A DNA stretch of 5,140 nucleotides, from positions 1 through 5,140 of IMG/VR virus record IMGVR_UViG_2698536640_000007, one strand, 5' to 3'. The position numbers and the translations under genes were made by a program. Under the pieces are notes generated by a model, which was not told where the DNA came from, did no database searches, and worked only from the letters and a program-made list of their open reading frames with translations. The stretch's first letter is position 1. Each line of letters starts with the position of its first letter. This document shows, piece by piece, positions 1,691 through 2,459 of the stretch. Source of the stretch: a virus (lineage: Duplodnaviria; Heunggongvirae; Uroviricota; Caudoviricetes).

Positions 1691-1758
1691 CGGTTGTCTC
1701 TGCTGGCGCAGCAGGTGCCAGTTGTTCAGGCTGGCATGCGAATTGTAAACCAGAATGC

Positions 1759-1790
1759 CAGGAAAAAACAAAACCCGCCGAAGCGGGTTA
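1759..1790 (-). terminator. Rho-independent terminator of the hok transcript (minus strand)
   Basis: On the minus strand: AACCCGC-UUCG-GCGGGUU (7-bp GC-rich stem 1772-1778/1783-1789, 4-nt loop) followed by UUUUGUUUUUUCC. The plus-strand reading has no T-tract, so it is unidirectional. Confidence 0.7.
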
Positions 1791-1791
1791 A

Positions 1792-1808
1792 GTGCGGGTG
1801 CGTTGAGG
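1792..1808 (-). promoter_or_regulatory. fbi-like 3' fold-back element of hok mRNA, complementary to the transcript 5' end
   Basis: Plus 1792-1808 GTGCGGGTGCGTTGAGG is near-identical to the reverse complement of plus 2173-2188 (CTGCGGGTGCTTGAGG): 15 matching positions with one single-base bulge, about 370 nt apart on the same transcript. Confidence 0.6.
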
Positions 1809-1857
1809 ATGCCTGACTCATCAGAGGTGGCGAGGGATTTCTCCCTCGCCAGGTCTC

Positions 1858-2013
1858 TTACTCCTCAGGTTCGTAAGCTGTGAAGACAGCGACCTCCGTC
1901 TGGCCGGTTCGGATTCGTACCTCGCAGAGGTCTTTCCTCGTTACCAGTGCCGTCACAATGACGGTAATACAGATGACGATCAGGGCGATTAACATCGCCT
2001 TTTGCTGCTTCAT
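1858..2013 (-). CDS. hokD: Hok/Gef family type I toxin, 51 aa (MKQQKAMLIALIVICITVIVTALVTRKDLCEVRIRTGQTEVAVFTAYEPEE)
   Basis: Hand translation of the minus strand from ATG 2013-2011 to TAA 1860-1858. SD AAGGAG lies 9 nt upstream. Single transmembrane helix followed by the conserved RKDLCEV...TEVAVF...YE periplasmic tail of Hok/Gef proteins; closest in memory to HokD/RelF and HokC. Absent from the ORF track because it is below the length cut-off. Confidence 0.85.
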   Translation of the reverse strand: MKQQKAMLIALIVICITVIVTALVTRKDLCEVRIRTGQTEVAVFTAYEPEE

Positions 2014-2071
2014 AGCCTGCTTCTCCTTGACCTTTCGGTCCGTAAGAGGCTAACCTACGTGTGTAGAGCAT
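1865..2071 (-). CDS. mok: Mok-like overlapping reading frame (modulator of killing), 68 aa
   Basis: Track ORF that starts 58 nt upstream of hok and overlaps almost all of it in another frame, as mok does in the R1 hok/sok locus. GAGG lies 9 nt upstream of its ATG. Confidence 0.55.
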   Translation of the reverse strand: MLYTRRLASYGPKGQGEAGYEAAKGDVNRPDRHLYYRHCDGTGNEERPLRGTNPNRPDGGRCLHSLRT

Positions 2072-2130
2072 AGATATGGCCTCAGATTAATGTTAAGCGT
2101 CTTGCCGGACGCGTAATGTTAACTGGGGCT
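2060..2130 (+). ncRNA. sok: Predicted Sok-like antisense RNA (coordinates approximate)
   Basis: Inferred from hok/sok architecture: the antisense RNA should be complementary to the hok mRNA leader around the mok start. A candidate plus-strand promoter is TTGACC (2027-2032), 18-nt spacer, TAACCT (2051-2056). I could not define a clear 3' terminator. Confidence 0.3.
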
Positions 2131-2172
2131 TTTCTCTATCTGCCTTTTGGTGTTCATGCCTGAGACAGATAG

Positions 2173-2196
2173 CCTCAAGCACCCGCAGCGATTTTA
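2173..2196 (-). promoter_or_regulatory. hok mRNA 5' end (tac-like element) with candidate -10 hexamer
   Basis: Minus-strand TAAAAT (2196-2191) followed by GCGGGUGCUUGAGGCUAUCUGUCUCA, which resembles the R1 hok mRNA 5' end as recalled and pairs with 1792-1808. The predicted transcription start is about 2184-2186. Confidence 0.45.
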
Positions 2197-2227
2197 CAGA
2201 AATAAGTTATTATTTTCTATCTCACCC

Positions 2228-2254
2228 TTCACTTATCTCATTCCTAGCTATACT
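2228..2254 (+). promoter_or_regulatory. Candidate sigma70 promoter for the 57-aa plus-strand ORF
   Basis: TTCACT (2228-2233), 15-nt spacer, TATACT (2249-2254), about 30 nt upstream of the ORF at 2286. The spacer is short, so this is tentative. Confidence 0.3.
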
Positions 2255-2285
2255 CATCGTTCACACAACATTAAAGGGCATAAAA

Positions 2286-2459
2286 ATGACCGTTCATGGT
2301 ATACAGGAAGGCAGTATTGTTAACTTACGTGAAAAAGATGGGGAATGGCTTGTAGTACAAACTATTAAAAACGACGACCTTACATATCAACTCCGAAATA
2401 CAGATACCAACGAAGAAGTAAACGTCGCACTTCAGGACATTATCTCCCCAAATAAATAA
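2286..2459 (+). CDS. Hypothetical small protein, 57 aa (MTVHGIQEGSIVNLREKDGEWLVVQTIKNDDLTYQLRNTDTNEEVNVALQDIISPNK)
   Basis: ATG at 2286 with SD AAGGG 7 nt upstream and TAA stop at 2457-2459. It is the only plausible plus-strand gene in the window, divergent from hok and convergent with the 114-aa gene. No confident family assignment. Confidence 0.5.
   Translation: MTVHGIQEGSIVNLREKDGEWLVVQTIKNDDLTYQLRNTDTNEEVNVALQDIISPNK

Follow-up and report, generated by a model that had tools for sequence, protein, structure and literature searches.

A probable sok antitoxin RNA gene opposite mok in a lambdoid prophage hok/mok/sok cassette

The question raised by this locus is whether the DNA strand opposite a small Hok-type toxin gene carries a gene for the matching antisense antitoxin RNA and, if so, where that gene begins and ends. 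The window, i.e., the whole stretch of 5,140 nucleotides that was analysed, is a mosaic lambdoid prophage region, with lambdoid genes (DUF968, HNH, Ead/Ea22 and DUF4406) flanking the toxin locus. An earlier note had proposed, from the letters alone, a Sok-like antisense RNA and its promoter opposite the start of mok. This proposal is borne out by the coincidence of position 2063 with the starts of sokW and sokC and by a -10 hexamer, TAACCT, that is the -10 of sokW. At a probability of roughly 0.88, we take plus-strand positions 2027-2139 of the window to be the sok gene that, together with hok and mok, makes up an intact type I toxin-antitoxin cassette of the hokW/sokW subgroup, carried by a prophage.

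The comparisons described below draw on two samples. A 541-nt query around the locus was compared with 5426 complete E. coli genomes and with phage records, and it matched 4955 of the 5426 genomes, at a median of 2 places per genome, as well as 102 phage records. In addition, 140 related loci, chosen by Hok similarity, were collected and yielded 77 distinct leader sequences.

The hok/mok cassette and its Rfam model

The minus strand of the window carries the following features:

1766-2184, minus strand: predicted full-length hok mRNA (minimum-energy fold, terminator scan and RF01794 coverage)
1858-2013, minus strand: hok toxin gene, 51 aa, Hok/Gef family (Pfam PF01848, E = 9.7e-24)
1865-2071, minus strand: mok reading frame of 68 codons (ORF list), with its ATG at 2071-2069 and the Shine-Dalgarno (SD) sequence GAGG at 2084-2081
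2184-2173, minus strand: tac, the 5' element GGGUGCUUGAGG, which pairs in the fold with fbi, the 3' element CCUCAACGCACCC, at 1808-1796
1789-1772, minus strand: hok terminator hairpin and T-run (terminator scan)
2191-2219, minus strand: probable hok promoter TAGAAA-17-TAAAAT (promoter scan, 9/12), with a start near 2184

The Hok protein scores 83.2 bits against PF01848, for which the cut-off is 22. The mok frame begins upstream of hok, overlaps it in another frame and is preceded by GAGG 9 nt upstream of its ATG; by analogy, translation of hok would be coupled to that of mok. The mok ATG, which reads CAT on the plus strand, is invariant across the leaders of the 77 relatives, and both 933W and phage Rac record MN652886 have an annotated mok at the equivalent place. 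Position 1 of the Rfam model RF01794 falls on the predicted hok mRNA start near 2184, and the minimum-energy fold of the full-length mRNA (-174.8 kcal/mol, z = -7.6) joins its 5' and 3' ends, with nucleotides 1-12 pairing with 1808-1796, a tac/fbi arrangement that has been described for the hok mRNA of R1 (PMC9841398). The locus thus combines a Hok/Gef toxin gene, an overlapping mok, an antisense RNA gene with a promoter (see below) and an RF01794 match above the gathering score, which together place it in the hok/sok family.

The covariance-model search that the earlier note had called for returned a strong match to RF01794 ("sok"), at 109.5 bits against a gathering score of 59, and this establishes homology of the locus. 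The match lies on the minus strand, however, where it covers the full length of the model (1-157) from 2184 to 2011 and stops at the hok AUG, and it therefore gives no support to transcription of the plus strand. The same model also matches the strand opposite the annotated Sok at hokC/sokC and hokB/sokB of K-12 and at sokW of 933W (L004 502-654, L005 567-718 and L001 2723-2897), and RF01794 models the hok mRNA leader that holds the Sok target rather than Sok itself. Because the model hits the hok-sense strand at sokC, sokB and sokW too, the match shows the locus and not the strand. It was rejected as direct proof of Sok, the hok strand being the one matched at every reference locus. In genome scans, strand calls made with RF01794 should accordingly be read as the strand of the hok leader, and are not to be taken as that of Sok.

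Further signals were encountered. On the minus strand, a promoter-like site, TTAACA-18-TATGCT (9/12), is located at 2096-2067 in the hok leader and overlaps the mok ATG. A hok transcript of the leaderless type could begin from it near 2060, although the site may be a chance match. Sub-threshold Rfam matches to isrK, ceN48 and CsrC were dismissed as chance matches or generic hairpins. That to isrK, a Salmonella prophage Hfq-binding sRNA (1768-1849, 27.8 bits against a gathering score of 50, E = 0.004), spans the 3' UTR hairpin and the terminator of the hok mRNA and probably reflects generic hairpin similarity.

Promoter, ends and strand of the predicted Sok RNA

Opposite the mok start, the plus strand carries the following features:

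2027-2032, plus strand: -35 hexamer of the Sok promoter, TTGACC (sequence)
2051-2056, plus strand: -10 hexamer of the Sok promoter, TAACCT, matching the consensus TATAAT at 3/6 positions (sequence)
2063-2133, plus strand, with the 3' end somewhere in 2133-2139: predicted Sok antisense RNA of about 71 nt (71-77), mapping onto the annotated sokW misc_RNA
2063-2077, plus strand: predicted single-stranded 5' recognition tail of Sok, about 15 nt, mostly unpaired in the minimum-energy fold
2078-2130, plus strand: Sok stem-loop and predicted terminator hairpin, 23 pairs of which 5 are G-U (fold)
2130-2137, plus strand: U-rich tract TTTTCTCT on the 3' side of the hairpin, forming the terminator tail (sequence)

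The two hexamers are separated by 18 nt (2033-2050), and G2063, 7 nt 3' of the -10, is the start implied by this promoter; the same base aligns with the annotated 5' ends of sokW in 933W and of sokC in K-12. A plus-strand promoter TTGACC-18-TAACCT with a start near 2063 had been postulated beforehand, and it is upheld here by homology rather than by its hexamer match. The window contains 10 sites of equal or better hexamer quality, while first-order Markov simulations gave 7.3 +/- 3.0, and the Sok hexamer pair is by itself no better than chance. Judged from the sequence comparisons, the significance of the promoter comes from its position-for-position homology with annotated and tested Sok genes and from its conservation in the 77 distinct leaders. 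The -35 position is kept as TTGACC or TTGCCT in 75 of these 77, the promoter types including TTGCCT-17-TAACCT (45 leaders), TTGACC-18-TAATCT (9) and TTGACC-18-TAACCT (6, the window among them). The -35 shares 2 nt with the hok SD AAGGAG (2028-2023) on the opposite strand, and its conservation is confounded by that SD. The -10 of the window is identical to the sokW -10 of 933W/Sp5 and is homologous to the TATCCT position of the R1-type locus. The built-in promoter scan of the window did not list the Sok promoter site, but this silence was not taken as absence because the thresholds of the scan exclude a 3/6 -10.

A plus-strand RNA that begins at 2063 is antisense to the mok initiation region, as had been suggested, because the mok ATG (2071-2069) and its GAGG (2084-2081) both fall inside the predicted Sok. 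The RNA does not reach the hok ATG (2013-2011), which is located upstream of the Sok start, within the Sok promoter region. The reverse complement of plus-strand positions 2063-2092 reads 5'-CATTAATCTGAGGCCATATCTATGCTCTAC-3', and the Sok tail is the complement of the mok AUG and, in the target hairpin, of the loop and the 5' arm. No ORF of at least 25 aa was found on the plus strand within 2063-2133 in the ORF list.

The fold of 2063-2136 (-29.7 kcal/mol, z = -4.7) consists of a largely free 5' tail followed by the 23-pair hairpin and then UUUUCUCU, i.e., the architecture expected of a Sok RNA, with a single-stranded 5' tail and one stable stem-loop. The earlier note had found no convincing terminator, a statement that is contradicted by the hairpin at 2078-2130 and the U-tract that follows it. 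The boundaries given there, 2027-2130, are right at the start but fall short at the end, since the transcript probably extends a few bases past 2130, to 2133 by equivalence with sokW or to 2139 by equivalence with sokC. The Sok terminator is not listed by the built-in terminator scan of the window, an omission that is probably explained by mismatches inside the stem. The terminator corresponds to the stem-loop and GGGGCU..UCUU tail of R1-type Sok, and the GGGGCTTTTCTCT tail is kept in nearly all relatives, hokC-type and Erwinia loci included. The conservation of the U-tract is confounded, as the same bases contribute, on the opposite strand, to a helix of the hok leader.

The weakness of the promoter hexamers leaves room for other readings of the locus. 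It could be argued that the locus descends from a hok/sok cassette but that its plus-strand promoter is too weak or silent, 2027-2137 being conserved only through constraint on the hok leader, with no functional antitoxin RNA. Such a reading, which we consider improbable, would fit the 3/6 -10 and its omission by the scan, the chance-level hexamer match, the hok-sense orientation of the matching Rfam model and the description of the K-12 chromosomal hok loci as inactive (PMC1635323). It is at odds with the completeness of the remainder of the cassette: hok, mok, tac/fbi, the hok promoter and the hok terminator are all intact in the window, and such a locus, if unrepressed, should be toxic. In line with this, R1 hok with an inactivated Sok promoter is toxic even from the chromosome (PMC9841398). 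More radically, nothing on the plus strand might be functional, the hexamers and hairpin being by-products of the minus-strand gene; the chance-level hexamer matches are equally compatible with this proposal, which is the least credible of those considered here.

Both of these readings are confronted by the strand on which the hairpin is more stable. The conservation of the hairpin is itself confounded by the Rfam-modelled hok leader helices on the other strand, and the 30 long-hairpin sequences give weak formal covariation: only 2 pairs change in a compensatory manner, and most measures do not exceed those of shuffles. As this group is too little varied, the argument was based on strand asymmetry instead, compared over independent types of hairpin. 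In every one of the 35 distinct alleles, the Sok hairpin is 4-14 kcal/mol (mean 10.3) more stable when folded as the Sok strand than as the hok strand, and these alleles include the unrelated, shorter hairpins of the hokC type, the L106 type and Erwinia. The 5 G-U pairs of the hairpin are invariant in the 30 long-hairpin sequences, and the Sok-strand hairpin is the more stable because these pairs would be A-C mismatches on the hok strand. Constraint on the leader alone does not predict an advantage of about 10 kcal/mol for the Sok strand in every allele, nor is it expected if the hairpin is a by-product of the minus-strand gene. The sequence of the window sok gene, its positions, folds and homology and the strand asymmetry are direct observations, and favour a sok gene on the plus strand.

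Comparison with experimentally studied Sok loci

The closest studied relative is the hokW-sokW cassette (933W / Sakai prophage 5; AF125520, AP000422), which is the same cassette and likewise resides in a lambdoid prophage. The 933W record AF125520 annotates mokW, hokW and sokW, the latter as a 71-nt misc_RNA that maps to window 2063-2133 in a three-way alignment. The window locus is 91.5% identical to 933W over ~410 nt, and the toxins are 96-100% identical within the group. The window Sok RNA and sokW are both 71 nt long and identical at 65 of 71 positions (92%), the 6 differences all falling in the first 16 nt; identity is complete from nt 17 on, and the hairpin, the TAACCT -10 and the 3' tail are the same. 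The -35 regions differ, with TTGACC and an 18-nt spacer in the window as opposed to TTGCCT and 17 nt in sokW. This near-identity over both RNA and promoter places the window locus in the sokW subgroup. In 933W, an above-gathering match to the Rfam sRNA-Xcc1 (RF02221; L001 5249-5337, minus strand, 69.1 bits against 53) was also observed ~2.4 kb from hokW/sokW.

It has previously been demonstrated that hokW is toxic and that a fragment containing sokW and its own promoter neutralises this toxicity (Takada et al. 2021, PMC8621323). Mutation of the sokW -10 TAACCT abolishes antitoxin activity and results in Hok-dependent growth arrest, which is partially rescued by sokW in trans (PMC8621323); mapping of the oligonucleotides onto 933W indicates that the bases exchanged by primer YO-421 are precisely TAACCTA, the counterpart of window 2051-2057. 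Furthermore, northern blots probed with YO-592, an oligonucleotide complementary to sokW nt 1-30, reveal sokW RNA, which is gone after mitomycin C; the antitoxin activity of sokW partially requires RNase III and Hfq (PMC8621323). These findings weigh against a silent promoter, as the identical TAACCT -10 drives functional sokW and the TTGACC -35 of the window is nearer to the consensus than the TTGCCT of sokW. The experimental detection of a 92%-identical RNA, together with the strand asymmetry and all other support for a sok gene, similarly argues against the plus-strand elements being by-products.

The sokW data also bear on where the antisense RNA starts. It might begin elsewhere, for example at TTAACA-18-TAGCCT (1989-2018, plus strand), a site whose hexamer score equals that of the Sok promoter (8/12), and the longer RNA would then also cover the hok SD and AUG and block hok directly. 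This is very unlikely: none of the annotated Sok RNAs (sokW, sokC, sokB) begins there, and most of the alternative promoter is missing from the sokW clone with rescuing activity in trans, whose start, set by primer YO-406, corresponds to window 2011. The position of the site within the coding region of hok makes its conservation uninformative. The start at or near G2063 is therefore preferred.

The window locus resembles the hok/sok (parB) locus of R1 in architecture, although sequence similarity outside the conserved blocks is distant only, and Hok of R1 is ~44% identical to HokW (PMC8621323). The order of elements is the same, and in R1 the hok SD and ATG are overlapped by the Sok -35. R1-type loci and the window share the GTAAGAGGCTAxCCT -10 block, a mok ATG located just inside Sok, the hairpin and the GGGGCU..UCU tail; both Sok RNAs consist of a free 5' tail and a stem-loop; and the R1 hok mRNA exhibits the same tac/fbi closure and is matched by the same Rfam family in the same relative orientation. 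With its 64 nt, of which 11 form a single-stranded tail ahead of a stable stem-loop (PMC1635323), R1 Sok is shorter than the ~71 nt predicted for the window RNA, which has a ~15-nt tail and a longer hairpin; the R1 -10 is TATCCT (4/6) rather than TAACCT (3/6). The settings also differ, R1 hok/sok acting in plasmid post-segregational killing while the window locus is in a prophage.

The chromosomal loci of K-12 are more divergent. The annotated start of sokC aligns exactly with window 2063 and its end with ~2139, and sokC and sokB have the promoter block and the GGGGCTTTTCTCT tail in common with the window, yet hokC(gef)/sokC and hokB/sokB have a short hairpin of ~39 nt as against 57 in the window and a different -10 region, CACTCT. 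The toxin of hokD (relF) from the K-12 Qin prophage is 98% identical to that of the window. K-12-type hokD copies (L009, L054) are without the hok leader, mok and the Sok region, unrelated sequence abutting the hok start, whereas the window has the complete regulatory cassette.

A YUNR U-turn in the hok target loop (Franch et al. 1999, cited in PMC1635323) is regarded as facilitating rather than defining. In isolated-hairpin predictions, the target loop of the window, CUCUACACA, is without YUNR, while R1 has CUAG and 933W has CUGA. The motif is present in 20 and absent from 18 of the 38 distinct target alleles, likewise as isolated hairpins, and its absence from the window loop is not disqualifying because those 18 alleles are also without it. 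The points that speak against the window sok gene are the weak -10 (3/6), its omission by the promoter scan, the chance-level hexamers, the confounded conservation, the weak covariation, the absence of YUNR from the predicted loop and the inactivity that chromosomal hok/sok loci can show, as is said of those of K-12 (PMC1635323).

Transcription of the window Sok, its instability, the RNase III step and its biological role are proposed by homology with R1 Sok and SokW. Transcription of Sok, its instability and the cleavage of the duplex by RNase III have been shown for R1 (PMC9841398, PMC1635323) and in part for sokW (PMC8621323), and the same holds for the other steps of the mechanism proposed here. 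On this basis, a sigma-70 promoter, TTGACC-18-TAACCT, would drive a constitutive RNA of ~71-77 nt from at or near G2063, with transcription ending at the U-tract after the stem-loop. In hok mRNA that has been processed at its 3' end and has refolded, the Sok tail would then meet the loop of the hairpin holding the mok AUG, and pairing would extend across the mok SD, thereby blocking mok translation; no Hok would be made if hok translation is coupled to mok, and RNase III would cut the Sok-hok duplex. Once sok transcription stops, e.g., upon prophage induction, loss of the element or host shut-off, the unstable Sok would decay, and the stable hok mRNA could be translated into Hok, which would depolarise the inner membrane.

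A variable recognition tail and the prophage setting

The window Sok and sokW are probably not interchangeable at the recognition step because all 6 differences between the two RNAs fall in the recognition tail and its target. The predicted duplex of the window tail with its own target has an energy of -24.0 kcal/mol, and that with the 933W target -8.4. These differences lie in a sharp variability hotspot of 21 nt (2057-2077, both strands) that covers the Sok tail, the surroundings of the mok AUG and the target loop. Nucleotide diversity among 56 closely related loci was as follows:

2057-2077 (Sok tail / mok start region), both strands: 0.337
hok four-fold degenerate sites, minus strand: 0.076
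Sok hairpin, plus strand: 0.021

The 77 leaders contain 37 distinct alleles of 2057-2077, and copies within one genome carry different tails. When each allele was folded, all 38 kept the target hairpin, with energies between -9.6 and -16.7 kcal/mol; inspection by eye for simple pairwise covariation in the hypervariable tail showed no clear pattern. On average, a tail is predicted to pair with its cognate target at -24.1 kcal/mol and with a non-cognate one at -10.8. According to PMC9841398, R1 hok is repressed by none of the Sok RNAs encoded on the K-12 chromosome. It is conceivable, though we hold it only tentatively, that 2057-2077 is a diversification hotspot which renders the hok/sok cassettes of co-resident prophages mutually orthogonal; each Sok would then recognise its own hok mRNA only, with the rest of the cassette near-identical. 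Alternatively, relaxed constraint may explain the hotspot: no other part of the leader than 2057-2077 both lies outside the conserved helices and encodes no needed protein. 

As regards its surroundings, the cassette is located where two modules of the mosaic meet, a conserved one with DUF968/RusA/Q and a variable one with ead/Ea22-HNH-DUF4406, and no complete E. coli genome covers at least 80% of the window, the best reaching 71% coverage in 2 pieces at 98.8% identity. Directly upstream of the hok promoter, and transcribed away from it, is a 57-codon ORF (MTVHGIQEGSIVNLREKDGEW..., 2286-2459, plus strand) that has a Shine-Dalgarno-like AAGGG and, at 2260-2287, a sequence resembling a promoter; a search of this ORF against Pfam gave no match. 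A decayed copy of the cassette was observed in E. coli ECMA0423 (L008; CP178302.1, 1947710-1949062), in which the Sok -35 is changed to TGTGCC, the hairpin and U-tract contain deletions and the tac region is mutated (GCCACATGCAG). From its sequence, this hok/sok copy seems to have been inactivated, and the genome also contains intact copies.

Sok genes of this type are already known, annotated and experimentally studied, and the window copy is real but ordinary. Its annotation deserves comment. At a 99.4%-identical locus (L002 4001-4541, NZ_CM129862.1, corresponding to window 1750-2290), the RefSeq/PGAP annotation consists of a hokD CDS alone and omits both mok and sok; the RefSeq protein named HokD is identical to the window Hok. 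PGAP applies this name because the toxin is 98% identical to K-12 hokD; the name links the window toxin to a gene without an antitoxin RNA and hides the Sok gene. A complete and, as far as its sequence indicates, probably active toxin-antitoxin cassette is easily overlooked in this way, because only the "HokD" CDS is annotated and K-12 hokD has no antitoxin RNA. The homologous cassette of Sp5 makes lysis occur earlier and doubles phage release after induction (PMC8621323), and for this reason the window cassette may plausibly affect the induction behaviour of its prophage as well.
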